Below, in pieces: positions 737-20,860 of a stretch of 27,695 nucleotides of DNA. The DNA is from a virus (taxonomy: Duplodnaviria > Caudoviricetes): positions 1-27,695 of the IMG/VR virus record IMGVR_UViG_3300025646_000258; one strand, 5' to 3'. Every line of letters begins with the position of its first letter. Position 1 is the first letter of the stretch. Under the pieces are notes generated by a model. The model was not told where the DNA came from, ran no database searches, and worked only from the letters and a program-made list of their open reading frames with translations. The position numbers were made by a program, and so were the translations under genes.

Positions 737-1297
737 ATGTCCGGTGTAGATAACAGCAACAATGACCAAGCAGAAATTCGACTGATGGGGCTCATCCTGA
801 CGCAGGCTGTGTCCATTGGTTTGGCCATCGCCATCTTTGATTCTGGCATCTGGCTTAACCTTCCTGAGCCAACCCTCAACGGCGTGACCTACGCTATGGC
901 AGCCTTCGCCGTGCAAGGCTTAGCCTACTACCTGTTCAAAATGTTCTTTCAGCAAGGAATGGATGAACGCGCTCGCGCTGCTGCTCAAGAGCGTGCTCGG
1001 CGCACACGCTATCGCAGCATGGAGATGAACTTCGACCAGCGGCGTCAGGATATGGAGATGCGGATGCAGGAGGCTCAATTGGAAGCCGAACTCCGCTGGA
1101 TGGAGAAGAACCCCGGTCGCACACCTCCTTGGATAGAATCTCGCATGGCTTCGGCCAGTTCTTCGTCGGTCGACTTCATCCCAGAAGAAGTGGCAAGGCA
1201 CGTGGCACCAATGAGCCTTGGGCTTGAGTTCACTGACGCTGAAGAGGACGTCGGTCCTGAGCGCGGTCCTGATGGAAAGTTCAAGAAGAAGGAGTGA
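737..1297 (+). CDS. Membrane protein with two N-terminal TM helices and a coiled-coil/charged tail
   Basis: Hydrophobic segments LMGLILTQAVSIGLAIAIF and GVTYAMAAFAVQGLAYYLF, followed by an R/E/Q-rich helix. ATG at 737 follows GAGGG and is preferred over the track start at 692. Confidence 0.8.
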   Translation: MSGVDNSNNDQAEIRLMGLILTQAVSIGLAIAIFDSGIWLNLPEPTLNGVTYAMAAFAVQGLAYYLFKMFFQQGMDERARAAAQERARRTRYRSMEMNFDQRRQDMEMRMQEAQLEAELRWMEKNPGRTPPWIESRMASASSSSVDFIPEEVARHVAPMSLGLEFTDAEEDVGPERGPDGKFKKKE

Positions 1298-1303
1298 TGG
1301 GGC

Positions 1304-1552
1304 TTGGGCCGCATCTTCAAGACGCCGTCTGACGATGCCGTCGAGGAGACCCTTCGGAGCATGCACATCGCCAACACGGTGGACGTGGCCTACGAGCGCA
1401 GTCTTGGATGGTTGCGTACCGTTCTGTTTTCTGTCGCCACAGCATTCATCATTAGTGGCTACGAGTTCTACCGTGACTGGAGTCTTTGGGAGTCAACGGG
1501 TGAGTGGGTCAGAGAAACGCTTCGTCGGTGGGCAGACTCGATTTTCAACTGA
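1304..1552 (+). CDS. Small single-pass membrane protein
   Basis: TTG start 6 nt after GGAGTGA; hydrophobic stretch LGWLRTVLFSVATAFIISGY; Trp-rich C-terminus; tightly packed between neighbouring genes. Confidence 0.75.
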   Translation: MGRIFKTPSDDAVEETLRSMHIANTVDVAYERSLGWLRTVLFSVATAFIISGYEFYRDWSLWESTGEWVRETLRRWADSIFN

Positions 1553-1561
1553 GGTTCGACC

Positions 1562-2284
1562 ATGAGTGCAATCGGAGGCTCCGCACTGGTCGGTGGCGTC
1601 GTTTTTGCTCGTGAGTTGTGGCACTACTGGAAGCCTCGCCGCGTCGGTGTCTACGGTCCGCCTATGGTTGGCAAGACGACGCTCGACCGCTACATGACCA
1701 CACCCGGTGAGATGGAAGCCATCCCTGAAGACGAACGAACCAAGCACTTCAAGGTCCCCGGACTGAATCGTTTTTTGCTGCCCACCCCAACACGAAAGCG
1801 CGTGTCCTACAAGGGCGATACGCGGGTGGTTTATTCTTCGGACGTGGGAGGCGACGAGCGCTTTTGGAACCTCTGGATTGACGACATGGTCAACCGTCAA
1901 GTCGAATCCATCGTCTTTCTGTTTGACCATCGCTCAAAGGACGGTGGCGAAGCGGCCATTCAAGCCATTGGCGGCTTCAAGTACCTCGTTGACGCTGTTC
2001 TGCATCGCCAATATCGGTACCGCAACTTGAAATCGTGGATGAAGGGGAAAAAGTATGCACCAAAAATCGTCATGCTCGTGGCGAACAAAGCCGACCAGTG
2101 GTGGGACGAACAAGCCAACATTCTCTGGCAACAGCAGCGACTCGGTGAACACGCCATGTACGACCCTTTCAGAGCCGACCTCGTCCGTTTGCAGAAGGCG
2201 GGTATTCCTACGAAGAGGGGAATGATGGCCACAAGAATTGGCTGGAACGTCGAAAACACGATGCTTGACTTGCTGACTGGATAG
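1562..2284 (+). CDS. Ras-superfamily (Arf/Sar1/Rab-like) small GTPase
   Basis: G1 GPPMVGKT (1655-1678), G3 DVGG followed by DERFWNLW (from 1841), beta strand IVFLFD, G4 NKAD (2084-2095) and a G5-like MATRIGWNVENTM. N-terminal hydrophobic/aromatic segment. Confidence 0.9.
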   Translation: MSAIGGSALVGGVVFARELWHYWKPRRVGVYGPPMVGKTTLDRYMTTPGEMEAIPEDERTKHFKVPGLNRFLLPTPTRKRVSYKGDTRVVYSSDVGGDERFWNLWIDDMVNRQVESIVFLFDHRSKDGGEAAIQAIGGFKYLVDAVLHRQYRYRNLKSWMKGKKYAPKIVMLVANKADQWWDEQANILWQQQRLGEHAMYDPFRADLVRLQKAGIPTKRGMMATRIGWNVENTMLDLLTG

Positions 2285-2294
2285 GTGATAAGTG

Positions 2295-3299
2295 ATGATT
2301 GGAAGATTTGGTGGATATGGGCAGGTACCGCAGAGTGACGCGAGTCTGGCGACGATGAGTCAGGCTCACTTAATGGCATTGAGCCAGCAAGGCAACGCGA
2401 GCCATGAGCAATTGCTGGAGATGCAGGCTGCTCAGCAAGGCATGCGGGACATGGCTGGCAAGCAGAACATTGTCGTGCCAAAGGTCAACTTCTATCCGAG
2501 CCGCCATCCTGACCCTCGGAAGGCGAGGAAGCAGGACATTCGGCAGGCTCGGAGTCTTTTGACGCCGACCAAGCGAGGTTTGCTGAATCCATTCCGCTGG
2601 GTTTGGACGTTTAAGTACAGGTACAACAGGCAGAGCAACCTCTGCGTCATCGACGGGTGCAACTGCGAGGAACTGATTCGCTACGACAACCTCTACGCGA
2701 AGATTACGGATGAGGAAACCGGCAAGAGTTTGTGGGAACTCTACTGGCGAAACCCCGTCACACAGACTCCAGAGCCTTTCGTGGCACGGGAAAAGGTCAC
2801 CAACGGTCAGAAAATGAAGGGGACCTACTGTCCTGAGCACCTCCACCTTTACCACCTCCTGTGCAAGTGGGAAGCCGAGAACGACAAGGACCACAACACC
2901 ACCAAGACGGGAATGAAGGAAATGGTCAAGAAGGGTGTTTCGACGGTCGCTGTTCCTATCGCGGTGGTCAAGAAGAAGGACAACACGCCTGAGTTGCTCA
3001 AGAAGTACGAGCCCTTCTTTATGGAATTGGAAAGGGACTCCAGCACGCACCCCGGCATCACCCTCTCGCACTACCAGAACCCTGAAACCGGACTGAACGA
3101 CATCACCACGGTCACTTTTGACTTGCGGATGTTTCAGAAAGAAGTGCTGGCCACGCGACCTCAACTCTCTGATGCCATCGCGAACCTTGGCATCATGCAG
3201 ATTGCACCGACCCACCCTGTAGTCGGACCAGCAGAAGGTGTTATGGGAAGGCCTGAACTCCCACAGACCGAGCAGGGTCTGTTCGGACAGGGGGCTTGA
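2295..3299 (+). CDS. Hypothetical protein with a putative Zn-binding domain
   Basis: ATG 6 nt after AGGTGA. CVIDGCNC ... YCPEHLHLYHLLC ligand set; Gln/Met-rich N-terminus. Confidence 0.75.
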   Translation: MIGRFGGYGQVPQSDASLATMSQAHLMALSQQGNASHEQLLEMQAAQQGMRDMAGKQNIVVPKVNFYPSRHPDPRKARKQDIRQARSLLTPTKRGLLNPFRWVWTFKYRYNRQSNLCVIDGCNCEELIRYDNLYAKITDEETGKSLWELYWRNPVTQTPEPFVAREKVTNGQKMKGTYCPEHLHLYHLLCKWEAENDKDHNTTKTGMKEMVKKGVSTVAVPIAVVKKKDNTPELLKKYEPFFMELERDSSTHPGITLSHYQNPETGLNDITTVTFDLRMFQKEVLATRPQLSDAIANLGIMQIAPTHPVVGPAEGVMGRPELPQTEQGLFGQGA

Positions 3300-3302
3300 G
3301 TC

Positions 3303-3920
3303 ATGTTTGGCAACCCATCATCATCTGGAGCATTGAATCTTGGTGCCTCTTCAATGGTCGCGCAGCCTGCCATGTCGAACCCCTTCGCTTCACAGGGTAT
3401 GCAGCAGATGTCCCAGTCCCCCTTCATGGGAGGGATGGCTGGTGGCATGGGCATGCAGCAGAACATGATGCAGCAGCCTATGGCACCTCCCAGTGAAATG
3501 GAAATTCAATTAGCACTGATGCGCACTTTGGCTCCTATTGACCGCTTCGTTGCCGGACCGAGCATGGCTACGTTGGTGAAAATGCTCAACGACCTCATGT
3601 CTTTCTCGATTCTTGAAATCTTGAAAAGTGCTACGTTCAAACTTGACGATGAAGGCGTGATGAAAATGGACATTACGAGCCTTCCTCCTCATCTGCAGAC
3701 GATGAGCGCTGAGAACGTCACCACTCAGTATAACTCACTCCAGATGGTGAGTCAGCAGAGCATTCAGCAGGCAGAAATGCAGCAGCAGCAGATTGCTGCG
3801 TTTGCACAGCAGAGCATGATGGGAGGCGCGTTGAGCGCAGCCCTTGCGAATGAAGGCCTCATGGACAGGGCAGGTGGCGCTGCTGGTAAGTTCATGGGTT
3901 CGTTTATGGGGGTGAGGTGA
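3303..3920 (+). CDS. Met/Gln/Gly-rich hypothetical protein
   Basis: Starts 3 nt after the upstream stop. Low-complexity M/Q/G termini flank a central helical region, and the C-terminus (AAGKFMGSFMGVR) looks amphipathic. Confidence 0.75.
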   Translation: MFGNPSSSGALNLGASSMVAQPAMSNPFASQGMQQMSQSPFMGGMAGGMGMQQNMMQQPMAPPSEMEIQLALMRTLAPIDRFVAGPSMATLVKMLNDLMSFSILEILKSATFKLDDEGVMKMDITSLPPHLQTMSAENVTTQYNSLQMVSQQSIQQAEMQQQQIAAFAQQSMMGGALSAALANEGLMDRAGGAAGKFMGSFMGVR

Positions 3921-4159
3921 TGATTCAGGATTCTATGTCGGGTTTTGCGTCTTCGACGATGGAGATTTTCGCTCCGGTGAAAAGCGTCATCATCGACATG
4001 GTCATGGTGCAACTGTTGTCCATCATCATCGCATTGGCAGCCATTTTACTACTTGCATCCTCGGAGTTGAAGAGTGACCAGATTGCCTACCTTGTGGCAG
4101 GACTATTCGGGGCGTTCTTCATGCTCGGCAGCATCTATGCCCGCATCTCCGAGGTGTAG
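3917..4159 (+). CDS. Small two-TM membrane protein
   Basis: Overlaps the upstream stop (GTGA; ATG at 3920 is an alternative start). TM1 VMVQLLSIIIALAAILLLA and TM2 IAYLVAGLFGAFFMLGSIYA. Confidence 0.75.
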   Translation: MMIQDSMSGFASSTMEIFAPVKSVIIDMVMVQLLSIIIALAAILLLASSELKSDQIAYLVAGLFGAFFMLGSIYARISEV

Positions 4160-4429
4160 AGGGCCAGTGTAGCGACCCCACTTCTTGAGTGGGCACTCGC
4201 TCGACCGCAGCACGGTCTTGACCCGCATTTGGCAGCCGCACTCCAAGCACCGGCTGTACCATTCGTCCCAGCGCGGGCAGGTTTTACAGATGCTGATTCG
4301 CTCTGTCTGAATTTGGTCAGGTACAAAGCGGCGCAGTCCAGCGTCTCGTGCTGCTCGACTAAGGTCGACAACGGTTTTCATGGACACAGGTACGCCTGCA
4401 ATCCGAGGTGCAGCGCGTGGCAGTTTCAT
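4103..4429 (-). CDS. Small Cys-rich Zn-binding protein (resembles the DUF6171-like R-x-x-IC-x-x-C...C-x-x-CGC...K...CP-x-x-KW pattern)
   Basis: Within the track ORF 4103..4642(-). Motif ERISICKTCP...RCLECGCQMRVKTVLRSSECPLKKW. ATG at 4429 fills the otherwise empty gap 4160-4430. The family name is recalled, not searched. Confidence 0.7.
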   Translation of the reverse strand: MKLPRAAPRIAGVPVSMKTVVDLSRAARDAGLRRFVPDQIQTERISICKTCPRWDEWYSRCLECGCQMRVKTVLRSSECPLKKWGRYTGPLHLGDAGIDAAEHEERPE

Positions 4430-4490
4430 GCTGTTCAGGACCGGCTTGGCGTTCAAAACCGTTATGGCGGCTGGTTGCGTGGCCCGACGT
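4430..4490. promoter_or_regulatory. Probable divergent promoter region
   Basis: 61-nt gap between head-to-head start codons (4429 on -, 4491 on +) with a central AT-richer core (GTTCAAAACCGTTAT). Neither gene has an SD site, consistent with leaderless mRNAs. Confidence 0.4.
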
Positions 4491-5189
4491 ATGGGGAGCG
4501 GACGCCAGAACAAGCGTTCATGTCCGTTCTGCCAACACGGCGACCGTGACTCGTTGGAACAGAGCATCATCGACGGGGTCGCCGAAGCCCGATTGATAGA
4601 CCAAGACTTGGGCTGGAGAGCCAATACGGCTGAACGCCACATGAAAAATCACGTCGGTGACTATCATGTCGGCGCCAACCACTCCTGCGCGGTCTGCACC
4701 GACGACAACCGGCGCATGTTTGAGGTCGCCTACTTTGAAGGCGAGCGCACCACGGACGACATCGCTGAAGAATTGGGGTGCAGTGAAGAATTGGTCTACC
4801 GCCACATGAAGCAGCACTTCCAACCGTTGGTCAAGAAGTCGTCAGCGGCCATCGTGGCCATTGATGCTGGGCAGGAAATCGACATCTTGCGCGACAACGT
4901 CCAGTCCCTCAACGGCAAGTTGGCTCAGTTCATGCAGGAAAGCAGCGTGCACGATGATGGCGTGATTGCCGACATGGTGCGTCTGCACAAGGAAGTGCGC
5001 GAGACACTCAAGGACCTCAGCATGTATCAGGAGAAGTGGGCTACCCCGACAACGAGCGTGGCCAACAGCACCATCAATGTCCTGAAAGTTGAGTTGGGTA
5101 AGGAGAGCCCTGAAGTATGGCGCCGCGTCCGCGAAAGCCTGCTGTCCCAAGCCGATGGTGTCGACGAAGACATCGTAGATATTCTGTGA
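4491..5189 (+). CDS. Tandem Zn-finger/HTH DNA-binding protein with C-terminal coiled coil; candidate terminase small subunit
   Basis: Two repeats: CPFCQH...LG...ERHMKNH and CAVC...DDIAEELGCSEELVYRHMKQH. A coiled coil follows, and the gene heads the run leading to TerL. Start could alternatively be 4464. TerS role is inferred. Confidence 0.65.
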   Translation: MGSGRQNKRSCPFCQHGDRDSLEQSIIDGVAEARLIDQDLGWRANTAERHMKNHVGDYHVGANHSCAVCTDDNRRMFEVAYFEGERTTDDIAEELGCSEELVYRHMKQHFQPLVKKSSAAIVAIDAGQEIDILRDNVQSLNGKLAQFMQESSVHDDGVIADMVRLHKEVRETLKDLSMYQEKWATPTTSVANSTINVLKVELGKESPEVWRRVRESLLSQADGVDEDIVDIL

Positions 5190-5198
5190 GGTGAGAAG

Positions 5199-6317
5199 AT
5201 GCCGGCGACTGGTTCCGACACGCGGATGTACAGTCCGCGTAGCGAGTCCAACCTCGGCTACTCCAAGGACGACGACTACCCGCACGGTATCGGCGACCCA
5301 GAGGAAATGGAGGCCTACCGCGACAAGCAGATGGCTGAGAAGGAGAAGCCAACGCTCACCGATGACCTCCCTCACCTGCAACTCTCCATCCCTCGCACAC
5401 CTCCGCCCGTGCCCGGTATGCCTCCGATGGAGGAAGAGGAGCCAGCGATGGACGACCAGTTCAACGAGGGTCAGCAGTTTGGGGCCATGACGGGCATGCC
5501 TGACGTGGGCAACCTCAGCATCGGCAACGCGACGGGGACCATGCCCGCTCCCGGTGGCATGTTGGCTACGGGTGAGCCTATGGAGCACGCGTGGTCGTCG
5601 CTCATGAAAGCGCGGCTTGACGATGTGGGCACTGGGAAAGACAAAACGTGGAGCCAGCCGAAGTTTGAGACGCAGCCCGGTGGGTCCGACATCACGACGG
5701 CGACCAGCCGCCGCTCCAAGGCGCAGTCGCGTGCACTCGGTGGCGGCGGGAAAAAGCGCGGCCTTGACCTCGCTCCACTGAGCGTCGACCGGACGCACCT
5801 TGGCGTAGCGACCAAGCAGCCCCTCCGCCTCTTCCCTGAGCAGTACGGCCACCAGCGCGCGACTCAGCAGCGCCGCAGGCTCATGGGCAACGTGCCTCAG
5901 GCTCCTGCGGGGCACGGGCTTGGCCCAGAGCGGACCTATCAGCCGCGTGGACCGAAGGTTGCTGTGAGCGGGCAGACTCCGATGAAGGAGCCTATGGTGC
6001 CCCGCGAAAGAGGGCAAGGTTTTGCCAAGTCCATGGAGGGCCTGCGCGAGGACATCGAGGCCCTGAACAAGGCCAAGGACTACCTGCAGTTCAGCCAAAT
6101 CCGAAGGCTGCTGCGCCAACTCAAGGATGCGACGGAGCGGCAAGAGCGGCGACTGAAGGCTGCTGCGCCCGGTGAGAATCGAGAGGCTGGACATCGAGAG
6201 GGGCAGGACAGCACGACGAAACCTGAGGGCGCCACTGAGAATCTGGAGGACGACCCGAAGAACTGGGGCGCCCCGTCCACGTTGTTTGCTGCACGTGGGA
6301 GCGGGAGGGTCGGCTGA
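5199..6317 (+). CDS. Hypothetical protein, largely low-complexity/disordered
   Basis: GAGGTGA SD 4 nt upstream of ATG; 372 aa; stop overlaps the next start (TGATG). Confidence 0.75.
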   Translation: MPATGSDTRMYSPRSESNLGYSKDDDYPHGIGDPEEMEAYRDKQMAEKEKPTLTDDLPHLQLSIPRTPPPVPGMPPMEEEEPAMDDQFNEGQQFGAMTGMPDVGNLSIGNATGTMPAPGGMLATGEPMEHAWSSLMKARLDDVGTGKDKTWSQPKFETQPGGSDITTATSRRSKAQSRALGGGGKKRGLDLAPLSVDRTHLGVATKQPLRLFPEQYGHQRATQQRRRLMGNVPQAPAGHGLGPERTYQPRGPKVAVSGQTPMKEPMVPRERGQGFAKSMEGLREDIEALNKAKDYLQFSQIRRLLRQLKDATERQERRLKAAAPGENREAGHREGQDSTTKPEGATENLEDDPKNWGAPSTLFAARGSGRVG

Positions 6318-8320
6318 TGTTCAGGGTCCATCTGCCCGCCACGTCCTACCTGAAGAAGCAGGTGAAGTTCTTCGACACGCTGGATTTCCTCAAGGCGTAC
6401 AAGAAGCACGTTTGGATGAACCAGTCGGCCTCCGTCACCAAGAGCGCTGGGTTGGCCTTTGGCGACCAACTGCTCCCTCACTCATGGGCGCCGACCGATG
6501 CCGGTATTCACCCTGACCCGAATACCCCCGACCACCCGCCGTGGAACCATCACCCTGAGACGGGTGAACTTCTTCCCGGCGGACTTCACCCCATCGACTT
6601 CATTCATCGTGACCTGCAGCAGCGATATGGGTACAGTCCGCAGCAAGCCGCAGACCTGATTGACGAAGCCGTTGATGTGCATAACCAAGAGGCTGGCAAA
6701 AATCACCAAGCCCCTTACTTTGGCAGCCCGCAGTGGCGCAAGGTCTTCATTGGACCACATTACCCTCACAATGAAGATGTACACATGCGTAGGGTGCGTG
6801 GTCGAGACCCGCTGTACGAAGGCGGACCTCGCCCGTTCATCACGTATTTCGCGAACAGCGGTAACGTCGAGGGGGCCGCCCAAGGCCAGTGGATTGATGG
6901 TGGTGCCGTGCACATCAATCGCGCACTTGGGCAGGTGTTAGGAAAGCGAGGACATCTTCAGGGACTGAGCCCCGAACAGTACCCGAATTACGTCAAGTAC
7001 AACGCTCTCAAGCCGGGCGACCTTTCTGGTGGTATTGTTCAGTCGATTGGAACAAAGGATTTCAACAAATATCGTCAAACAGGTCAGTTGCCTCCGTTTT
7101 ATCAGAGTGCAGAAATGCAGGCGGCATTGGCCGAGCAGCGCCGCCATCCTGAAATCCACGCACACCAGTTGGCACAATTACTGCCTGATGCTTTTTATCA
7201 CGCGCCTACGGGAAGTGGAGGTGGTCGTGGCGGCGGCTCAACGATTGACCTGAAAGGCATTCTTGGTCAGATGGGGGTCGAGCACGGTCTTTCTGACGAA
7301 GAATTGGCCAAGATTGCCGGAACAAGGGCCATGAAGATGCTGTTTCAGGAGACCCACAACATCGACTCAGAGAGTGGCAGTGGTGCCGTAAAGTCACTGG
7401 TCAATGTAATGCTCCGAGACATCAACTCTCACTACACAGATGAGTTTTACCCGATGCACGCTTCGCATGCACGTGGTGCTGAAATGGATGAATCGACACC
7501 GTTTCACCGAGCCGCGAACCGGGTGGCCGGAAACATTGTCGCGCACATGAGCAACGCTGTTCACAAGTTGATGATGCAAGGTATGCCTGAAGACGAGGCG
7601 AAGATGACTGTGGCTCGCCAGATGCGTGAATCTCAGGTCGACACAAAAGGTCGCTACGAACCAGAAGAAGGTATGCGCGAGAAGACAGAGGCGGTTTTGA
7701 CGGCGATGCTCAACAGAAGCGGCCATGACCCGGTGACGATGGATTCGTTGGACAGGATGTTGGGCGAAATCCCGACAGACCCTGAACAGCATCACTTGCG
7801 GACACCGACTCTGTCGTTTGAAACAGAACACGTTGCTCCAGAACACTGGAAGAAACGCATTGTTTTCCCTCACGAAACCGCTCCACAGGGCGACCAGACG
7901 ACTGAAGAAGCACCGCCACTCCCACCTGCACAGCCACCTGCACCTGCCCCCGCACCCCCTATGGGGGGCGCTGGACCGGGTGCAGGACCGGGCGCAGGAC
8001 TGGGTGCAGGACAAGGCGGTGTTGGCCTTGGACCGGCTGGTAAGGGGGGAGTGCTCGTGACGTCGCCTACCGGAGCAACACTACCACCATCACTCACGTG
8101 GGCAAAGCCCACGACTCCACCTGTCGCACCAACGATGCGTCAGGCCGCTCCGTTTGAAGAGCAGTACATGCAAGCGCGCAACGTGCCGCGCGAGCAGACC
8201 TTTTTCGACATCGGTACTGGTGCGGTGGTGCAGCGCTCTGATGATGTGGTCTCCAGCCTCGACGAGATTCGCAAGAAGATGGGCTACTTCGACGGCTTCC
8301 TCAGGGGGCTGCAGCCATGA
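6317..8320 (+). CDS. Hypothetical protein (667 aa), His-rich with a Pro/Gly-rich C-terminal linker
   Basis: Long ORF translationally coupled on both sides (TGATG and ATGA overlaps); no recognised catalytic motif. Confidence 0.8.
   Translation: MFRVHLPATSYLKKQVKFFDTLDFLKAYKKHVWMNQSASVTKSAGLAFGDQLLPHSWAPTDAGIHPDPNTPDHPPWNHHPETGELLPGGLHPIDFIHRDLQQRYGYSPQQAADLIDEAVDVHNQEAGKNHQAPYFGSPQWRKVFIGPHYPHNEDVHMRRVRGRDPLYEGGPRPFITYFANSGNVEGAAQGQWIDGGAVHINRALGQVLGKRGHLQGLSPEQYPNYVKYNALKPGDLSGGIVQSIGTKDFNKYRQTGQLPPFYQSAEMQAALAEQRRHPEIHAHQLAQLLPDAFYHAPTGSGGGRGGGSTIDLKGILGQMGVEHGLSDEELAKIAGTRAMKMLFQETHNIDSESGSGAVKSLVNVMLRDINSHYTDEFYPMHASHARGAEMDESTPFHRAANRVAGNIVAHMSNAVHKLMMQGMPEDEAKMTVARQMRESQVDTKGRYEPEEGMREKTEAVLTAMLNRSGHDPVTMDSLDRMLGEIPTDPEQHHLRTPTLSFETEHVAPEHWKKRIVFPHETAPQGDQTTEEAPPLPPAQPPAPAPAPPMGGAGPGAGPGAGLGAGQGGVGLGPAGKGGVLVTSPTGATLPPSLTWAKPTTPPVAPTMRQAAPFEEQYMQARNVPREQTFFDIGTGAVVQRSDDVVSSLDEIRKKMGYFDGFLRGLQP
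7969..8010 (+). repeat. Degenerate 12-nt coding tandem repeat (AGPG units)
   Basis: gctggaccgggt gcaggaccgggc gcaggactgggt gcagga encodes AGPGAGPGAGLGAG. Confidence 0.6.
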
Positions 8321-9342
8321 CCGACAAGGTGCTCGTGAAGGCCATAAGGCCTGAGTTCCCAGTGTCTGGTGGACCGCCAATCATGGTCATGGACAGTGGC
8401 CAAGGGGGAGGGCGTGGAGCCGTGGGCGTCACCCGCCGTCAGCGCGCTCTTGGTGGGCTTGGCACGGCAGTGGGTGTGCTCGGTTCGCTCGCTGGTCAGC
8501 ATCGAAGCCTCGGTGGGCTGGTTCAGTCTGCCATCTCTGGTGGCGCTCAGGGCTCCGCGCTTGGCAACGCTTTAGGTCGAAAGTTCACGTCTCGCGAGCG
8601 ACAAGCCCGCGCTGACTACGAAGAGGGAGTTCGTCAGAAGTACGCAGCACGTCAAGCGTCAGGCGACATGGGTATGTTCCAAGGCACTCGTCGTATGGGG
8701 AAGACAGTAGGTACTGCTTCTGACCCCATGACGATGGCCAACCAGATGCGGTATGTGGACCGAGAGCGGGCGGAAGCCATTGAACGGCAAAAGGCGCAGG
8801 CGGCTGTTGAAGAAGCACGGCGGAGGGCACATGGGAGGAACTTGGGTGAGGAAGACTTGGCAAACCTTGAGCGCATAGATAGGCTCAAGCGAATGATGGG
8901 TGTGGACAATATCACCTTTGATGCAGGCTTAGCCAACATGGAGGCTGCAGGTGGCCCGGCGTCTCGCTATCCGCCACCAGAAGCCGACTTTCAACCGACG
9001 AGACCAGTGGTCAATGCGGGTGGAGAAGTGGTGCACCCTGACGCAAGCCAAGCCGTTGCCGTCGTCCAAACTACGCCTCTACTCACAGCACCGGGCGCTG
9101 CTGCTGAGATTGGTAGAGATGAAAAGACTGCCATCGACGCCGCCACTCAGGAGACCATTGGTGTGACTGGTGACGGTGCGAGCAAGGAGCAAGAGCAAGC
9201 GCTCGCCAACTATCAGCGACCACGTCCTCAACCGTCGCAGCCGCAGGGCACGACGGTGCAGACAAAACTACCCGTCGGTGTTCAAGATAACGAGACTGCT
9301 GGGATGAGTGAACTACAGCAGCGTAATATGGGGGCGGTGTGA
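8317..9342 (+). CDS. Hypothetical protein with a glycine-zipper-like hydrophobic segment and coiled coil
   Basis: ALGGLGTAVGVLGSLAG...GGLVQSAISGGAQGSALGNALG followed by an R/E/A-rich helix; abuts TerL. Confidence 0.75.
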   Translation: MTDKVLVKAIRPEFPVSGGPPIMVMDSGQGGGRGAVGVTRRQRALGGLGTAVGVLGSLAGQHRSLGGLVQSAISGGAQGSALGNALGRKFTSRERQARADYEEGVRQKYAARQASGDMGMFQGTRRMGKTVGTASDPMTMANQMRYVDRERAEAIERQKAQAAVEEARRRAHGRNLGEEDLANLERIDRLKRMMGVDNITFDAGLANMEAAGGPASRYPPPEADFQPTRPVVNAGGEVVHPDASQAVAVVQTTPLLTAPGAAAEIGRDEKTAIDAATQETIGVTGDGASKEQEQALANYQRPRPQPSQPQGTTVQTKLPVGVQDNETAGMSELQQRNMGAV

Positions 9343-10852: not shown

Positions 10853-12157
10853 ATGTGGCCAAGTCTTGGAGTCGGTGGCGAAAACGTCGTCGACATGGGC
10901 CACCCCACTCTTTCGGCAGTGGCCTCCAGTTTGGCTACGCATCCTCGCATGAGCGTGCCATTGGCCAAGGCTGTGGCTGAGGCTACGGTTGTCTTTGTTG
11001 ATGATGATGACTCGAAGCCTACTTACGCACCCTTTGCTCCTACTGGTGAAGGTTGGTTTGAAGACCGAATCGGGAAGAGCGCGAACGAAATTATCCGTGA
11101 CCTGCGCAAGGCTCGCCGTGTGCTGAAAGAGGACAAGGTTGAGATTGACGCCCTTATCGCCAGCATCCGCGCCCTCAAGAGCGCCGAGGTTGACGCGACG
11201 CTGTCGCGCTTGGAGTGGGCTCCCCCTCACATCGAAACGATGCGCAAGATGGGGCTGTCGGACAAAGACATGCGCTCGCTTCGTCTGTTCGGTGATTCTC
11301 GCAAGGCCAGTCTTGTGCGTGCCTGCAGTGTGTGGGAAGCAGCGGAAGACTCGCTTGCCAAGTTGGATGAGTTTTCAGACGTTTGGGGCGAAGAAGAGCG
11401 TAACGCTTGGGTCAACGCCATGCAGCAAAAGCAGGACGCTCGAAAAATGTGGAGCAACGCACTGCACCAGTTTGAGACGCTGTCGAAAGAGCAGCAGAAC
11501 TGGTTGCACATGGCCAAGGAAGAAGTTGAGGAGAAGGGTGCGATGAGCGCACGCGCCATCACCAGCAACCTCGTGGAGAAGGGGGTTTCTCGCATCACAG
11601 CGGGCCGCATGTCCAAATTGCTGACCATGTACGGCGAGGAAGTCAACATTGTGAAGGGTCACCGTAAAGGCGAGTTCATCTCCATGTCGAGGGAAGGCTT
11701 GGTGCTCAAGGACCCGTGGGCTTACGCGGCAGGCTTCCTTGATGCAGACGGCTACATCACCATCACCGAGCGTGGCGAGCCACGTGCTGGCTTCATCGCA
11801 ACGGGCGACCGTGGTCGAATGCACTGCGAAGAGTTGCACAAGAACGTAGGCGCAGGCATCCTCCAATTGGACCAGAAGGTGTACAAGGATGGTCAGCGCA
11901 GTCAGCACCGCGTCAGTTTCTACTCCAAGGACGACCTGACCAAGTTGCTGGACAACATCACCCCTCATCTGAGGATGAAAGATATGCAGGCTAAGGCCGT
12001 CAAAGCCTACATCAGAGAGAAGAACCCGTTGCGTAAAACACAACTCAAGCGCTTCGTGCAGTTCTCCAATCGGGACGGAACAGACAAAGGTGAGGAGTCC
12101 CTGCGCGAATGGGGAGTCGACCGTGATACGGTCATGAGTTGGGCGGAGGGTCTGTGA
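10853..12157 (+). CDS. LAGLIDADG endonuclease-domain protein with a long helical N-terminal extension
   Basis: YAAGFLDADGYI motif at 11723-11758 followed by a typical LAGLIDADG tail (SKDDLTKLLDNITPHLRMKDMQA); GGAGG SD. Confidence 0.85.
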   Translation: MWPSLGVGGENVVDMGHPTLSAVASSLATHPRMSVPLAKAVAEATVVFVDDDDSKPTYAPFAPTGEGWFEDRIGKSANEIIRDLRKARRVLKEDKVEIDALIASIRALKSAEVDATLSRLEWAPPHIETMRKMGLSDKDMRSLRLFGDSRKASLVRACSVWEAAEDSLAKLDEFSDVWGEEERNAWVNAMQQKQDARKMWSNALHQFETLSKEQQNWLHMAKEEVEEKGAMSARAITSNLVEKGVSRITAGRMSKLLTMYGEEVNIVKGHRKGEFISMSREGLVLKDPWAYAAGFLDADGYITITERGEPRAGFIATGDRGRMHCEELHKNVGAGILQLDQKVYKDGQRSQHRVSFYSKDDLTKLLDNITPHLRMKDMQAKAVKAYIREKNPLRKTQLKRFVQFSNRDGTDKGEESLREWGVDRDTVMSWAEGL

Positions 12158-14691: not shown

Positions 14692-15042
14692 ATGAAGCCA
14701 CGATTTGAGCCAGTGCCAGACGAAGTTCACCATTTGCTGAAGGCTGCGCGCGAACTTGAAGACCGCATCGCCAAGAAGGAGGGCAGCATGCCCGACTACT
14801 CTGGACAAAAAGAAGGTGCAACGCAGGGCAGTGCCCGTTTTGAAGCACAGCCCTCCGGTGTCCCCAACACCTTCTACAACACGAACAACGTCGTGCCTGA
14901 AGTTCAGGACGTGAAGAACAAGGGCGCTATCTCTGAGAGCAGCAGCGTGCTCGACAAGAACCCCTACTACCCAACGGCCTTCAGCACCACTGGCGCTCTG
15001 GAGAACACGGCGGGCGATAAGGGTGCGCGAAACTCCCCTTGA
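14692..15042 (+). CDS. Small hypothetical head-module protein
   Basis: ATG at 14692 after GGAGTGAGG; short helix followed by a polar disordered tail. Confidence 0.72.
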   Translation: MKPRFEPVPDEVHHLLKAARELEDRIAKKEGSMPDYSGQKEGATQGSARFEAQPSGVPNTFYNTNNVVPEVQDVKNKGAISESSSVLDKNPYYPTAFSTTGALENTAGDKGARNSP

Positions 15043-18000
15043 TACGCTCGACCGAGCGAGGGATGTCTTCGCCAAGTCGCTGACCGATGGCGTCGGAAGG
15101 GCGGATGCAGGGGCTGAGTTTTTCCTTCAGGCCGTGAGCGCTGAGCGCCACGGCTATCTTTTGGGTGCAGACGACGAAGCACTCATCAAGATGTTCTACG
15201 CCGTCATCCGTAAGGAAGACGAAGGTGCAACGGGCACGCAGGGTGCGGTTGACCTTGCCAACGACATGAACGAAGGTATGCAGGAAAGCGGTCTGAGCCA
15301 GTACCAAATTGGCTACGACATCAGTCATGGGGCTGGAATGGGGCTGGCCCCAAACCCCTCCTATGACGAGAATCGAGTTGTCCCTCCTGAGCCAACCGCT
15401 GGCTCTCTTGTCGGTCACCATGTGCAAATGGTTGACGGTCATGAAGACGACCCTTACCGTACTCACGACGTGTTTGGCCCTGACTTCAACCCGCTTTACG
15501 GTCGCATGGGCGAGCATTTGGCTGGCTACTACGTGGCGGACGACCCTCGCGAAGAATCTGTAGCCCAGAAGCATCATCACAAAGAAGGTGCGTGGGAAGA
15601 AGAGGCGAAGGATGGTCTGCACAGTTTCCTGCGTAACGTGCATCACCTCGGCAAGTTGGACACCGATTATGCGACCAACCATGCCCTGTATGAGAGAGAC
15701 TACTCTGATTGGACATCAAACAACAGTTCGGACCTGAGCAGGGTACGCCAGCAATTGGAAGAGGAAGGGTTGGACGAAGGCGAAATTGACCACCGCTTTC
15801 GTCAAGCGCACATCAAGCAGAAGCAGGCTGAGTGGGACGAGAACCTTGGGTTCTTCGACTACCTCTTTGGCATGGAATGGCTGACGCCAGAAGAGCGTGC
15901 AAAGGCCTACGAGTACATGCGCGAGCATGGGGCTGCAAGGCACGAACAGAAACCTCTCAAGTTTGGGCGTCACACAAACGACCCCGATTTCATGCCGCGC
16001 TTCAAGCGCTCGTTCTGGCAGAGGTTCGCCCCTTACTACGACTGGTGGGTGCGCGACCCCAAGGGTCCGGGCGAGGGCATGATGAACCGCCCCATTCGAC
16101 TCCCAGAGGCAGCGACTGAGTACACCGAGAAGCGTTTCAACCTCGATGCACTGCGCTCTCACCGCCCTGACGTCGGTGGCGCACACGGACTTGAGCGAGC
16201 ATACGACTCGTTCAACAGGTTCCTTGATATTGCGGCTCAGTACGAAGGAGTTGACCCCAGACACGTTGAGAAGTACCGGATGAAGGGCGGTCGAGTGCCA
16301 GTCCTGAATCCTGATTATGATGAGAATGGTGAGCAACTTCCCTTACAGTTGACCAACATCGGTAGTCAGCAAGAAATGCGTCCTCAATCAAAAAATGACT
16401 TGCAGGCCCGTAGCAACGGTCTCGGTGAACTCGAATTGCGCCTTCTTCTGGGCATCGACATGAACGGGAAGTTGTACGAAGAAGGGAAGCACCCCCTGTG
16501 GGGAAACCTTTGGATGGCCAAGGACCAGTTCGGAAATCCGGTTGCAGGGATGCAACCTGAGTTCACGCAGGAAGAGGCTGACTCCATCATGCGGGAGCGG
16601 TTACGAGAAGGTGTCCAGACGGCTGCGCCCGGACGTGCTGCTCGCAACCACGCCATTGGGATGTACGGTACCTACGTTGACCCTGACGCTTACGGTTGGA
16701 CCGAAGACCACGATTCGCTCAAGACGTACTTTGCCGAACCCTTCCTCGGCATGGGTGGCCTGCACAAGAACCCTAACGAGTTGTTCAACATCCTTCACCA
16801 CGCAAGTCTTCTTTTCTCGCCCAAGCAGCAGCAGACTCAAGACGAAAGCGAGGCCTTGCGGGGCTTTTCATTGGCTGACTTTGGTATCGAAGAGGAGGAT
16901 GTGCCTGAAGAAGAGGCGGAGTACGAGGCTCAGATGGCTTCTCCTCGCGAGAACAAAGGGGGCAAGCGCGAAGAGAGTCTGCTGTTTTCGCGCACAGGGA
17001 ACAGTATCATGCACCGGCATGACCCAGAATCGGATTCGGCGGCCACCATGGGACCATTCTTGGGACCCTTTGACCAGCGGTCCATCCAGATGGGGGACAT
17101 GGCAGTGGGCAACAAAACAGTTCTGACCAACTCCAAAGGCTCTGACGTCGACGCGGCTGCGAACCTTTCACCTCACCACGTTCTTCAATCGTCCAGTCGA
17201 CAGGGGACGTTCGGCTTCAACTCTCAGACGACCCGACACAACGTGACGGTTGACTCGGCGCACGCCAACCGCCTTCAGGGGGAATACCACAACGCCCGTG
17301 AGTCCGGGGACAGCGATGCTGCACAGGCTGCTCACGACGCGATGAGAGGTAATGTGCCTGAACATATCAAAATCAGCAACCCCTTCGGAGCCGAGGGCGG
17401 CGCTCTCAGCGACGAGACCTTCAATGCCCACGGGGCGCATCACTACTACGACATCGCTCATCGACTTGGCTTTGGTCGAGCGCCAATGGACCCTCAGCGA
17501 GAGCCTTTGGAGCACGGAAGCGCCTTGATGGGCCAGTCTCCGCTGCGCAATCCAGATGAAATGGAGCGGCTTAGTCGGCGGGTCGCTGTTCCTGAAGAAG
17601 CCAACTTTGAGACGGCGAAAGCCGCACTTGATGAGGAGTACGAACGGTACTCCAAATCGGTAGGCGACTCAGAGGAAAAGCAGCAGGAGTTGAAAGAGGA
17701 GTACGAGCGAAGGCTTGCTCGTCTTCAGCAAGAGCATGCTCTGAGACCTTATCCTGACGAAGAAGCACTGTACGGCACAGAATCGTTTTCGATGCCAGAG
17801 CAAGGCGGTATGTTCGGAGCGCTCCAAGGCGGACTTGTTCCTCGGTTGTCGATGCCCAGCCCCCTCAAAGAAAATGAAGAGGAGTTTTTTCGTCTTGTCG
17901 ATGCGTCGGCTCAAGTGCAGGAAGCGCTTGACGCCACAGATGACCCTGCTCGTCGAAAGCAGTTGCAGTCTGAACTCATCGACCTGAATCAGCAGATGGA

Positions 18001-20860
18001 CGTGTTGGAGTCCACGCTTGGTGATGTAGGGGGTCAAGTGGAGGTAGGGGCTGTTTCTTCTACAAGTAAGCGGGCTTCTAAGCGGGCTTCTGTACGAGCA
18101 ACGCATCAGAAGTTGAGGGGCGATACGCAGGCGATTGCGGAAGCAGGCGCTCATTTGAAAGACGTCATCGGCACGACCGACCCGGACGCGCTGGCCCACA
18201 TTTTCGACCCAAGCCTGCCGCACGCCACTGTTGAGGCCAACATGCGTCAGTGGGCGCGCATGGCCAACGACTACCTCAACCGCGTACCGCACCGCCTTCA
18301 CGGCATCCATACCTTGGGGACCACCGAGTTCAGCGAGGCTGGGAGCCAAGCGCAGACGGGCTTTGGCACAAACATCAAGCGCATGGTGCACGATGCAGGC
18401 CAAGTGCCGCCGGTCGACCTGCAGATGATTCTTTCTGGCGGCGCTGGTGATGCGGTGAACGCCATCCTCGATACGCTGGAGTTGGACCCGAACGACCCTC
18501 GCCACGTCAAGATGGCAGAGGAATACTTGGAGCACGATATGTTTCCGAGGATGCTTTCAGGCCAGCCTACCGCGCCCGTGATGACCCTGCGTCAGGTGTT
18601 CAAGCAGATGTACCCGGACATCGACATCGACTTTGAAATCGGCGACCTCCGTAAGCGCACCAACCGTGGCCGTGCAGACGAAATCAAGCAGAAGGTCCAA
18701 GCCCTCCACCGCACCTTTGCCGTAGGTGCTGAAGAGCGCAACGCTCAGTTGGGTCTGTCCCACACGCTTGCGTATAACCCGGACGACCGTGGTTCAGAGG
18801 ATTTCACCAAGAAGCGCTCTGCGATGGGCAACGCGAAGCAGAAATTACTCAGGTACGAAGACGAGCACTTCAACACCCTTCAGCAACTCGACTCCATCAT
18901 TACGGGACTGCCGGAAGTTGAGCCAGCCGCTCAGGTGATGCAAACCCGTCGAGGTATGGGCGCTGTGCCCGTGGACAAGTTCGGGCCGAACACGCACTCG
19001 GTTATGTCGCTGTACAACTCAGCGGGCTACCGTCACGGCATGGGACGAAAGATGCAACCCAACTTTGATTTCCGCATCAAGCCCGATGGCACGGTGTCCA
19101 TCCTCCCCGTGCAGCCCGGAGCGTTGACGACGCACCTTGTTCAGCCGCTGGAGTCGTTCTGGAACAAGGTCGCTCCGGCTGCATGGATGCACATGCTTCG
19201 ACACCCTGACCACGCTGACGCCCGTGCGGCGCTGAACACGGCCGAGCACGAAGCGGCTGAGTTCAAGGTCAACAGCGTGGGCATGAGCCGGAACAGCAGC
19301 GCTCACAACATCACGATGTCCGAGTCAGGCCTTGACGTGCAGTTGGCTGGCTTGACCAACCCTGACGTTATTCGCAAGGAGTTGGGGAAGAAGGTCCCGC
19401 TGCTTCAGCCGATGCACCGCATCTTCGACCTTGACGACTTGGAGCATCTGCGTGGCTTCACTGGAGACTGGGTCGTTTCGACCATGCCTGAAGGTGAGCG
19501 CGGCTTCGTCAAGAAGGAGGACGACAAGGTCACGTCTGACTCGTTCAGTTTGTCGGACAAGGACAAGGAGAACTTCACGAAAGTAGCCAGCGAGGACTAC
19601 CACGCCGACGTCATCAAATTGGAGGACGGCTACTACATCTTCGACGTCATTGAGTTTGACGAGAAAGAGGTGCACGACGTGCCTCTCAACGACCGCATGA
19701 AAATCCTGCGCGGCGCCATGGAGGGCGTGCAGAACATCCACATCCCCAGTGCGAGCGACACGCGCTTGACCGACGACGCAGGTCTCAAGGTCACAGTCGA
19801 AAACCTGCAGAAGGACGACGAACCTATCCTGCTGCGTGATGCCAAGTCCGTCTACATGGCTGGCGAGATGCGGCACCCGAAGTGGGTGCTGCTCAAGCCC
19901 GGCAAAGACGTGGTGCTCCGTGTGCTGGAGCGGCGCGGTGACGGACCCTACACCTATCGACTCGGCACTGGGCCGGTGACGCGTGAAGAGCACATCGGCT
20001 CTCGCGCCGTCGAGTCCGATGGCGAGACCTACATGGACGTCGGTGCGGCGTTCAACAGTCCTGAGAAGTTCAACGAAGGCGACCACGTGCGCGTCAACGT
20101 CGCCAACGTCAGCAAGGTGGAGGGCGCCGACAACACAGCCGTCTACACCCTGACCGGCTCTGAAATTGAAGGAGAGGCTGAAGGAGAAGGCCTCGTTAGT
20201 CAGGAAACCCTGAGCCTGCTTGCCAAAGCAGAAGACCAGTGGCTCTGCGAAGTCACACGGGCTCCCGGCGGGATTCGCGTCAGCATGCCTCAGGGTCACG
20301 TGCTGTACAAGTGCACGCAGAGCGGTTCGATGTGGACGGCCCACAGTCCGCTGGCCGACAACACGTATCTGGTTCGTCTTGCCGAAAGTCAGCGACCCTA
20401 CTGGTCTCCTGTAGCAGGTGCGATGCTCAAGGCTGACGTCGACATCAAGGAGATGGTCGAGGAAGATGAAGACGAGTTTGGCGAAGCCAAGCCTCTCATC
20501 AAGCCAAAGAAAGTGCAGGGCACGTCATGGTGGGAGCAAGAGGAGAAAGTCAAGGCGATGCGACGGGGCATCTTGACGCTGGAGCGCTTCCTGAAGAGCG
20601 GCATCGGCGCAGTGGGCGCATCAAATGCAGGTGCCAAGGGTCTGGGTTTTGACTACGCTACCCCCATTGAGTCTCCGATGGGTCCGACGAACCTCCACGA
20701 CGAGAAGACAATGCCTGATTTTGACAACCGGAAACGGCCCGGCGAGGACTCCGACATTGAGGAAGAATCGGAGGACAGCGAGCCTGCGAAGCACATGGTT
20801 ATCCCTACAAAAGAAGGCGTTCTTGAGGTCACAGACGACAAGGCCGTCTTCCGTATGTAG
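15023..20860 (+). CDS. Giant protein (1945 aa) with a C-terminal degenerate ATP-dependent DNA ligase-like nucleotidyltransferase plus OB-like region
   Basis: About 19400-20200: DWVVSTMPEGERGFV (motif I-like), YYIFDVIEFDEKEVHDVPLNDRMKIL (IIIa), EPILLRDAKSVY..GEMRHPKWVLLK (IV/V), then a beta-rich region. The N-terminal ~1450 aa is unrecognised. Confidence 0.8.
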   Translation: MRETPLDTLDRARDVFAKSLTDGVGRADAGAEFFLQAVSAERHGYLLGADDEALIKMFYAVIRKEDEGATGTQGAVDLANDMNEGMQESGLSQYQIGYDISHGAGMGLAPNPSYDENRVVPPEPTAGSLVGHHVQMVDGHEDDPYRTHDVFGPDFNPLYGRMGEHLAGYYVADDPREESVAQKHHHKEGAWEEEAKDGLHSFLRNVHHLGKLDTDYATNHALYERDYSDWTSNNSSDLSRVRQQLEEEGLDEGEIDHRFRQAHIKQKQAEWDENLGFFDYLFGMEWLTPEERAKAYEYMREHGAARHEQKPLKFGRHTNDPDFMPRFKRSFWQRFAPYYDWWVRDPKGPGEGMMNRPIRLPEAATEYTEKRFNLDALRSHRPDVGGAHGLERAYDSFNRFLDIAAQYEGVDPRHVEKYRMKGGRVPVLNPDYDENGEQLPLQLTNIGSQQEMRPQSKNDLQARSNGLGELELRLLLGIDMNGKLYEEGKHPLWGNLWMAKDQFGNPVAGMQPEFTQEEADSIMRERLREGVQTAAPGRAARNHAIGMYGTYVDPDAYGWTEDHDSLKTYFAEPFLGMGGLHKNPNELFNILHHASLLFSPKQQQTQDESEALRGFSLADFGIEEEDVPEEEAEYEAQMASPRENKGGKREESLLFSRTGNSIMHRHDPESDSAATMGPFLGPFDQRSIQMGDMAVGNKTVLTNSKGSDVDAAANLSPHHVLQSSSRQGTFGFNSQTTRHNVTVDSAHANRLQGEYHNARESGDSDAAQAAHDAMRGNVPEHIKISNPFGAEGGALSDETFNAHGAHHYYDIAHRLGFGRAPMDPQREPLEHGSALMGQSPLRNPDEMERLSRRVAVPEEANFETAKAALDEEYERYSKSVGDSEEKQQELKEEYERRLARLQQEHALRPYPDEEALYGTESFSMPEQGGMFGALQGGLVPRLSMPSPLKENEEEFFRLVDASAQVQEALDATDDPARRKQLQSELIDLNQQMDVLESTLGDVGGQVEVGAVSSTSKRASKRASVRATHQKLRGDTQAIAEAGAHLKDVIGTTDPDALAHIFDPSLPHATVEANMRQWARMANDYLNRVPHRLHGIHTLGTTEFSEAGSQAQTGFGTNIKRMVHDAGQVPPVDLQMILSGGAGDAVNAILDTLELDPNDPRHVKMAEEYLEHDMFPRMLSGQPTAPVMTLRQVFKQMYPDIDIDFEIGDLRKRTNRGRADEIKQKVQALHRTFAVGAEERNAQLGLSHTLAYNPDDRGSEDFTKKRSAMGNAKQKLLRYEDEHFNTLQQLDSIITGLPEVEPAAQVMQTRRGMGAVPVDKFGPNTHSVMSLYNSAGYRHGMGRKMQPNFDFRIKPDGTVSILPVQPGALTTHLVQPLESFWNKVAPAAWMHMLRHPDHADARAALNTAEHEAAEFKVNSVGMSRNSSAHNITMSESGLDVQLAGLTNPDVIRKELGKKVPLLQPMHRIFDLDDLEHLRGFTGDWVVSTMPEGERGFVKKEDDKVTSDSFSLSDKDKENFTKVASEDYHADVIKLEDGYYIFDVIEFDEKEVHDVPLNDRMKILRGAMEGVQNIHIPSASDTRLTDDAGLKVTVENLQKDDEPILLRDAKSVYMAGEMRHPKWVLLKPGKDVVLRVLERRGDGPYTYRLGTGPVTREEHIGSRAVESDGETYMDVGAAFNSPEKFNEGDHVRVNVANVSKVEGADNTAVYTLTGSEIEGEAEGEGLVSQETLSLLAKAEDQWLCEVTRAPGGIRVSMPQGHVLYKCTQSGSMWTAHSPLADNTYLVRLAESQRPYWSPVAGAMLKADVDIKEMVEEDEDEFGEAKPLIKPKKVQGTSWWEQEEKVKAMRRGILTLERFLKSGIGAVGASNAGAKGLGFDYATPIESPMGPTNLHDEKTMPDFDNRKRPGEDSDIEEESEDSEPAKHMVIPTKEGVLEVTDDKAVFRM
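18067..18091 (+). repeat. Perfect 12-nt tandem duplication in coding sequence
   Basis: TAAGCGGGCTTC x2, encoding KRASKRAS. Confidence 0.8.

Follow-up and report, generated by a model that had tools for sequence, protein, structure and literature searches.

We describe a small GTPase from the Arf/Sar/SRbeta side of the Ras superfamily that is encoded by a tailed virus, probably a magrovirus, inside a five-gene block whose order (two membrane proteins, the GTPase, a zinc-type protein and a Gln/Met-rich protein) is the same in four distant viral lineages. In all 144 distinct viral copies from the loci examined the G2 threonine is preceded by an arginine, Arg59, which we infer to be an arginine finger acting in cis, with a relaxed Gln site after DxxG. 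Tentatively, we take the protein to be a membrane-tethered GTP timer that would use its own predicted arginine finger and trigger a late membrane step, most probably lysis for release.

The window, that is the whole stretch of 27,695 nucleotides analysed here, is one 27.7-kb virus record, 26% complete. Its genes for TerL, a homing endonuclease, the portal, a large ligase-domain protein, the prohead protease and the MCP form the structural module of a tailed virus, and its capsid protein is 33% identical to those of haloviruses. A structural module with embedded ligase and nuclease belongs to the magrovirus description of Philosof et al. (PMC5434244, in the part of the paper available). With such a module and an MCP about 33% identical to those of haloviruses the window fits these viruses, in agreement with the earlier note, which had attributed it to an archaeal tailed virus. 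Judged by structural module and capsid likeness, the window virus is probably of the magrovirus type; because its module resembles the magrovirus description, Poseidoniales, which are abundant ocean archaea, would be the host, a presumed host that was uncultured at the time these viruses were described. The ligase-domain protein (15023-20860), located between portal and protease, has 1,945 aa; about 1,450 aa without a family match precede its C-terminal ATP-dependent ligase domain (E 1.4e-6). A ligase in the magrovirus structural module was noted by Philosof et al. (PMC5434244, available text), and in HVTV-1 a comparable place is taken by a 1,313-aa 'zeta toxin' gene. TerL is followed by a 434-aa protein (10853-12157) with a C-terminal homing-endonuclease-like match (phrog_5046), whose position is kept in most lineage-A loci. 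Three poorly conserved ORFs rich in Gly, Pro, Gln and Met lie between the HTH gene and TerL (5199-9342); they have no convincing family matches and diverge much faster than the flanking genes. Just 5' of the block, at 630-700, a short G+C-rich non-coding stretch with self-complementary runs was seen by eye, possibly a terminator or promoter region. The features of the block and of the GTPase are listed in Table 1.

Table 1. Features of the GTPase gene and its surroundings in the window (gene numbers are relative to the GTPase gene).
Feature	Position	Strand	Description	Basis or occurrence
Gene -2	737..1297	+	Membrane protein, 186 aa, one strong and one weaker hydrophobic segment, charged helical tail	
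Gene -1	1304..1552	+	82 aa, one borderline hydrophobic segment (1.52)	
GTPase	1562..2284	+	Small GTPase, 240 aa, Ras-superfamily G domain, Arf/Sar/SRbeta side	ORF, predicted fold
N-terminal helix (predicted)	1568..1630	+	aa 3-23; first half Gly-rich and hydrophobic, second half amphipathic	Model, pLDDT 46-73
G1	1655..1678	+	P-loop, aa 32-39	
Arg59-Thr60	1736..1741	+	G2 threonine and adjacent invariant Arg, candidate intrinsic arginine finger	Alignment
G3	1841..1855	+	aa 94-98, DxxG, then Asp98 where the catalytic Gln usually stands (varies in the family)	
Basic insertion	2006..2065	+	Between helix 3 and strand 5	Charge
G4	2084..2095	+	NKxD guanine-specificity motif, aa 175-178	N, K, D invariant in 144/144
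G5	2228..2236	+	A-T-R here, S-A/S-x in other lineages	
Gene +1	2292..3299	+	Soluble zinc-type protein, 335 aa, conserved Cys118, Cys180, His183	
Gene +2	3303..3920	+	Gln/Met-rich helical protein, 205 aa	
Two-transmembrane protein	3917..4159	+	80 aa	Lineages A, B
HTH protein after the cassette	4380..5189	+	Possible terminase small subunit (inferred)	Lineages A, B

The ATG of the GTPase gene is immediately preceded by TGAGGT, a sequence resembling a ribosome-binding site, and the 240-aa translation contains every motif that the earlier note had quoted, including the N-terminal segment at aa 8-23. G1, the G2 threonine, G3 DxxG and G4 NKxD are present in order, which is the Ras-superfamily motif set; the ordered G1-G3-G4 pattern appeared in 6 of 200,000 shuffles. 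K38, T40, R59, T60, D94, G97, N175, K176 and D178 are invariant in 144/144 distinct viral copies, and purifying selection acts on the gene, with dN/dS of 0.016/0.51 relative to L004 and 0.096/1.99 relative to L001. The G5-like stretch is also present (aa 222-234), but here 'MAT' lines up with the Arf motif one residue out of register, because the family alignment sets G5 at A223-T224, with S-A in other lineages. Single-sequence searches of Pfam, PHROGs and PDB with the GTPase gave nothing useful, and a search of NCBIfam gave TIGR00231 at E 0.1. Pfam PF00025 did not match the window GTPase above cut-off; the best close relative reached E 0.0063 and some distant family members do match, and PF19993 was found with one member of 66 at E 0.14.

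An AlphaFold2 model of the GTPase, made from 66 sequences (pLDDT 75.7), is predicted by its Foldseek and VIA matches to have a single Ras-superfamily G-domain fold. The top matches in VIA, where rows within 1 Z count as tied, are Arf6 (Z 16.2, rmsd 3.4, 168 aligned), SRbeta (16.1), Arl2 (16.0), LokiRagO (15.7) and Sar1 (15.2), and the best Rab has Z 14.4, 1.8 Z below Arf6. Foldseek returned a mix of Arl2, G-alpha and Rab as top rows. A profile of 15 diverse family members found first 8oun (E 2.6e-6), an entry cited in the Asgard ArfR preprint (bioRxiv 10.1101/2024.02.28.582541), and then Arl8. In Atlas, viral clusters come first and bacterial Arf-labelled clusters follow at 0.94-0.95; one local similarity to Rab33B was seen (E 0.48). 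Rab proteins end in a C-terminal Cys prenylation tail, and the window GTPase has no such tail, since it ends right after the last helix, without any Cys. Membership of the Rab family was rejected on the Z score, the missing Cys tail and the modest separation from Asgard Rab-like rows in the tree described below. Thus, of the designation 'Arf/Rab-like' in the earlier note, the Arf part holds, as the Arf/Sar/SRbeta side of the Ras superfamily by VIA and profile, and the Rab part is not supported.

Among 909 candidates, 475 are homologues of the window GTPase, and as some of them carry the JGI label 'GTPase SAR1 family protein', a GTPase label already exists in databases. A profile search of 1.84 billion representatives gave 86 matches and exposed distant lineages. 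The viral loci scanned comprise the best 80 of 150 for lineage A, 13 for lineage B, the best 80 of 179 for lineage C and 4 for lineage D; scanning with P0128 gave no locus. The capsid protein of one lineage-B genome is 65% identical to that of the window and that of one lineage-C genome 43-53%. In two lineage-D contigs (79% and 33% complete) no capsid gene related to the window's was found, and the lineage-D contigs may represent a different virus group or element. In lineage D (L162-L165) the block lies near a chaperonin-like gene (L165 4820-6481), and one contig measures 110 kb and is 79% complete. Eleven of 80 capsid-selected contigs reach at least 21.7 kb upstream, and the GTPase was present on 11/11 of these (contig names matched by hand); four capsid-selected contigs were too short upstream to show it. 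HVTV-1, HCTV-1 and the methanogen viruses vir519 and vir335 gave no GTPase homologue (0/4), with a complete lineage-C genome positive as control. None of 50,697 GenBank phage records matched the GTPase, a blank that says little because the capsid query found only 11 of these records, none labelled magrovirus. A scan of GTDB with close-family patterns, which can miss a distant host homologue, gave 11 loci. Three of them (L179, L180 (G001:C18) and L181) carry the whole viral block on contigs of 8-16 kb, in metagenome bins named for two alphaproteobacteria and one Asgard archaeon; they are likely mis-binned virus, and from such bins the gene might wrongly be taken for a cellular or Asgard one. 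Of the remaining eight loci, the three for which ORF lists were read are EngA/Der-like false matches.

Searching 121 Asgard genomes revealed a cellular GTPase family at E 1e-15 to 1e-18, which is also top-scoring among Asgard loci with a virus-only profile and whose homologues are labelled mainly Heimdallarchaeia and Hodarchaeales. The same homologue search returned Arf-like proteins of about 230 aa, with four readable loci that look bacterial; 401 sampled genomes of one bacterial phylum gave no such relative at E 1e-15, in a search run with no positive control. Members of the Heimdallarchaeia/Hodarchaeales family (L311-L322, L324, L302; P0290-P0371) have DxPGD, a long interswitch and no N-terminal helix, and their gene neighbours are a CxxCxxCC protein and 2-oxoacid oxidoreductase-like genes in several genomes and a 272-aa gene without assigned function in others. 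The bacterial-type GTPases of L340-L343 (about 230 aa, Arf-like) have a strongly amphipathic N-terminal helix and are each followed by a conserved gene of about 185 aa without Pfam match; two have an uncharacterized gene of about 250-275 aa upstream. A membrane-gene block was absent near the GTPase genes of these nearest cellular relatives in the loci read.

A tree computed under LG+G4 has 162 core columns and 61 rows, the other 27 of 88 having been left out because they were redundant or long; in it the viral family forms a single branch (95/97) that joins the Heimdallarchaeia-type and bacterial-type groups (97/90), apart from Asgard rows that were labelled here, from Pfam scores and motifs, as ArfR-like (six rows) and Rab-like. 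A quick mixture-model tree of the 88 rows gave the same grouping (SH-aLRT 90). Forcing the viral family together with the ArfR-like rows or with the Rab-like rows was rejected only modestly (AU p 0.025 and 0.046). The tree is unrooted and contains no eukaryotic (Arf, Sar, SRbeta), MglA, Rup, Roc or ArvA sequences, and therefore names no donor. Profile search and phylogeny, which the earlier note had put forward as a check, thus give Arf-side matches and place the family outside the sampled Asgard ArfR, among unnamed prokaryotic GTPases. The bearing on the origin of eukaryote-like GTPases that had been claimed is indirect: the viral clade is a side branch and not the root of Arf, and these data give no ground for taking the virus as donor or ancestor of eukaryotic Arf.

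Genes -2, -1, +1 and +2 are present in order in 155/155 loci with at least 1.3 kb upstream and at least 2.2 kb downstream (180 loci examined). Since these loci also supplied the neighbour-gene profiles, independent evidence for the block comes from the comparison across lineages. There, hhalign shows +1 to be homologous throughout (91-100% against lineage A), links -2 of lineages A, B and D (93-96%) and links +2 in the pairs A-B, B-C and C-D (87-99%); the signals of -1 and of -2 in lineage C are weak. Order is constant in the 80 lineage-A loci, with the upstream genes absent only in L058, a contig that ends 95 bases before the GTPase. A match of gene -2 to SLATT_4 is weak (E 0.016) and below cut-off, and the 80-aa two-transmembrane gene after the block was not seen in the two lineage-C loci read. 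In lineages A and B the block is located upstream of TerL, at a distance of about 8 kb, in C it is found between the capsid genes and those for neck and tail, and in three of the four lineages it lies inside late genes. As its location differs between A/B and C, it has moved as a unit within the late region. Of the neighbours, the +1 protein was modelled with pLDDT 85 and pTM 0.64, and its fold matches were poor (E about 1 or worse in Foldseek, best Z 4.1 in VIA, best 0.77 in Atlas), a blank that does not show a new fold. ArfGAPs have a C4 zinc finger followed by a catalytic Arg; the +1 protein, with Cys118, Cys180 and His183 as ligands and no conserved Arg after them, was rejected as an ArfGAP. 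Among the GTPase neighbours tested, a roadblock protein (MglB-type) gave no Pfam or fold match, ArvB-/ArvC-type families no Pfam match and the GAP1 family no match.

The earlier note highlighted Asp98, at the site of the catalytic Gln. As the defining catalytic change of the protein this Asp is not supported, since in 144 distinct viral copies from fetched loci the site drifts between Gln (63), Glu (58), Asp (19) and His (4), and Asp98 was discarded as a family hallmark. By lineage, the counts are Glu 39, Gln 20, Asp 11 and His 2 in A, Asp 8 and Gln 5 in B, Gln 38 and Glu 19 in C and His 2 in D; the window protein and its 120 best matches (118/121 scored) have Glu 84, Asp 16, Gln 16, Asn 1 and His 1. 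The closest relatives, at 85-88% identity, carry Glu at this position, and Gln toggles among close relatives inside one unchanged cassette. An acid prevails among the cellular relatives (80/82 Heimdallarchaeia-type, 28/31 bacterial-type), which lends the emphasis of the earlier note some ground. Nor need an acid after DxxG mean a slow enzyme, because Ras Q61E has increased intrinsic activity (PMC2987813, according to the available text).

Constancy is found instead at Arg59-Thr60, which was present in 144/144 distinct viral copies, both in the alignment and in an alignment-free check; among three unplaced family members that have no locus, R-T at 59-60 is seen in P0162 but in neither P0128 nor P0160. 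In the alignment, the counterpart of Thr60 in the cellular rows is their conserved switch-I Thr; before it these rows mostly have Pro, Lys or Met, and Arg occurs in 2/12 bacterial-type, 0/9 Heimdallarchaeia-type and 0/6 ArfR-like rows. In group 1 MglA, an arginine next to the G2 threonine serves as an intrinsic finger, and MglB positions it (Wuichet and Sogaard-Andersen, PMC4316618, available part). Because Arg59 is invariant at the position of this MglA finger, the viral GTPase is probably not simply slow or reliant on the arginine of a neighbour; the earlier note, which had predicted slow hydrolysis or dependence on a neighbour-supplied GAP, missed this residue. Arg59 suggests catalysis in cis, and a partner may still be needed to position it. 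The AlphaFold2 model contains no nucleotide and is of low confidence in switch I (pLDDT 56-65), so the role proposed for Arg59 is read from the alignment. Rather doubtful is the opposite view, that the protein is a slow GTP-locked scaffold or obtains its catalytic residue in trans from a neighbour, Arg59 being structural. It draws on the absence of Gln from the window protein, from 81/144 viral copies and from 80/82 Heimdallarchaeia-type relatives, on group 1 Rup GTPases without Gln, which have been proposed to get Gln in trans, and on the near-invariant Arg79, Asn133, Asn263 and Arg279 of the +1 protein in lineages A, B and D; yet Gln is kept in 63/144 copies, toggling within one cassette, and Arg59 is invariant where the cellular relatives vary. 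That view concerns chemistry and is compatible with any of the cellular roles considered for the block.

The Arf-like amphipathic segment that had been suggested for the N-terminus is borne out in its distal half: the last 11 residues of the predicted helix have a hydrophobic moment of 0.59, as compared to 0.52-0.63 in three Asgard ArfR-like proteins, but the proximal half is little amphipathic (18-residue moments 0.13-0.19). All four viral lineages keep the helix, with lineage medians of 0.55-0.69 for the 11-residue moment. A transmembrane anchor at the N-terminus was rejected, as the hydropathy peak of the whole protein (1.24) is below the transmembrane threshold. Liposome binding that depends on GTP and on the helix is described for some Asgard Arfs, and many are thought not to act on membranes (PMC11914678, in the part accessible). 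The median net charge of the basic insertion is +8 to +9 in lineages A, B and D (+8 in the window's lineage) and +2 in C, and the insertion is a possible second contact with lipid or nucleic acid.

In the timer that we propose, GTP loading would free the helix at the N-terminus; this freed helix together with the basic insertion would bind the membrane near the membrane proteins of the block. Arg59 would act like the finger of group 1 MglA and stabilise, in cis, the transition state; because the finger would act in cis, the post-DxxG site could be relaxed and a partner would need only to position the switch, the zinc-type +1 protein being the best candidate. Whether the small membrane proteins assemble into a lesion or curved patch would be gated by the nucleotide state. 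Archaeal examples of membrane action that depends on GTP are ArvA (PMC10927574) and Asgard Arfs (PMC11914678). Points against the timer and lysis are the borderline hydrophobicity of gene -1 and its weak homology across lineages, the little amphipathic first half of the helix, the many Asgard Arfs without action on membranes, the two lineage-D contigs in which no related capsid gene was found and the absence of a membrane-gene block near the closest cellular relatives in the loci read, and a separate holin-endolysin-like locus proposed for another Poseidoniales virus genus (PMC11706807) counts against a role in lysis. Nor can it be the lysis system of tailed archaeal viruses in general, because HVTV-1, HCTV-1 and the two methanogen viruses are without homologue. 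That magroviruses possess a GTP-clocked egress machine, in which a self-activating Arf-related switch, equipped with an arginine finger of its own, gates small membrane proteins to breach the host membrane, we consider somewhat unlikely.

Other roles of the block have to be weighed. It could be a membrane-anchored assembly platform, where the GTPase cycle docks and releases proheads, portal or packaging machinery at the inner membrane face, without any role in lysis; the block adjoins putative terminase genes in A and B, is flanked in C by capsid and neck genes, and occurs in these viruses in the manner of a core gene (11/11 capsid-selected contigs). We regard this as unlikely, since haloviruses with a homologous capsid protein (33%) have no such block and in lineage D the block is found near a chaperonin-like gene, with no related capsid gene found on the two contigs tested. 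Remodelling or hijack of the host without lysis, whether by ArvA-like vesiculation, by forming an internal compartment, by blocking division or by excluding superinfection, also seems improbable, given that no neighbour has an ArvB-/ArvC-type Pfam match, that the late-gene position fits a terminal step better and that tailed virions have no envelope. There is a precedent in ArvA, to which vesicle formation in Haloferax is ascribed (PMC10927574, available text), and a review speculates that viruses could exploit ArvA (PMC10791045). Quite improbable is an action away from membranes, for example on nucleic acid or ribosomes through the basic insertion in a protein that merely shares an operon with membrane genes, as the strong charge of this insertion (+8), the modest N-terminal hydrophobicity and the helix-less Heimdallarchaeia relatives might suggest, against which stand the conservation of the helix in all four lineages, the insertion charge of only +2 in lineage C and the movement of the block as a unit.

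In literature on magroviruses, Poseidoniales viruses, archaeal Caudoviricetes small GTPases and tailed-phage Arf-like GTPases, as far as these texts were available, we found no description of the GTPase; the term 'GTP' is absent from the main text of three magrovirus papers, and supplements were checked for two, one (PMC11706807) in part only. GTPases that cluster with Arf in a possibly mobile Asgard region are already published (PMC11529989, available part), and giant viruses encode Rab-type proteins (BFVD matches). A 2024 review calls the main players in the egress of tailed archaeal viruses 'still completely uncharacterized' (PMC10791045). Should magroviruses indeed have the GTP-clocked egress machine considered above, lysis under the control of a small GTPase would be a first among prokaryotic viruses and would offer an answer to the question how tailed archaeal viruses exit their host, via a GTPase lineage shared with Heimdallarchaeia. 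The block is compact, expressible and conserved across distant lineages of abundant marine viruses, which makes it testable in vitro and in laboratory strains. Moreover, the family is a natural experiment on GTP hydrolysis, with the catalytic Gln free to vary and the Arg beside the G2 threonine fixed, and the Heimdallarchaeia and bacterial sister groups widen the prokaryotic Arf-side diversity.

With the Arf family (Arf6, Arl2, Arl8, Sar1, SRbeta, Asgard ArfR; PMC11914678, available part) the viral GTPase has in common the predicted G-domain fold (Z 15-16), a predicted N-terminal helix before strand 1, DxxG followed by the switch-II Trp, and NKxD, but it is only 11-17% identical to its top structural matches and differs in its basic insertion, the Arg before the G2 Thr and the variable Gln site. 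From G2 Thr to G3 Asp there are 34 residues (24 in lineage C), as compared to 19 in the ArfR-like L270, so that the interswitch is not of typical Arf length (criterion of PMC11914678, as given in its accessible part), and the tree holds the family apart from the ArfR-like rows (AU p 0.025). The Heimdallarchaeia/Hodarchaeales (e.g. P0321) and bacterial-type (P0377, P0391) GTPases, with which it forms one branch (97/90, core columns only), share the long interswitch, an extended helix 3 and mostly an acid at the Gln site, but mostly have no Arg before the G2 Thr and have other gene neighbours, and the Asgard members are without N-terminal helix. The Rab/Ras/Ran GTPases of giant viruses (BFVD matches, PDB 5XC5) are likewise virus-encoded and of the same fold, but they belong to viruses of eukaryotes, are Rab-type and not Arf-side, and are 10-22% identical to the window GTPase. 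DO-GTPase ternary systems (PMC7159879) have a Walker B glutamate and a GAP1 gene downstream; the viral G3 begins with Asp. ArvA of Haloferax, a small GTPase with amphipathic N-terminal helix and zinc-ribbon neighbour, drives vesicle formation (PMC10927574, available text). ArvA-ArvB-ArvC (OapABC) and the viral block each combine an archaeal small GTPase, an amphipathic N-terminal helix, which in the virus is predicted and amphipathic in its distal half, and a zinc-binding partner downstream, in the virus a zinc-type protein. ArvA also acts on membranes, but its system is cellular and the accessible text describes no membrane genes in its operon (PMC10927574); the two are set apart here by description and by the family searches of the neighbours, not by ArvA sequence. 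Group 1 MglA and SofG (PMC4316618, available part) share with the viral family an invariant Arg right beside the G2 threonine. In MglA the G3 reads TVPGQ, the Gln is fixed and the partner is MglB, whereas the viral GTPase has DVGGD, a DxxG with a variable next residue, together with an N-terminal helix and no roadblock match among its neighbours. The likeness to MglA, which is not in the tree, is positional and may be convergent. Taken together, the viral protein would be an Arf-side switch with an MglA-like predicted finger, a member of neither family.
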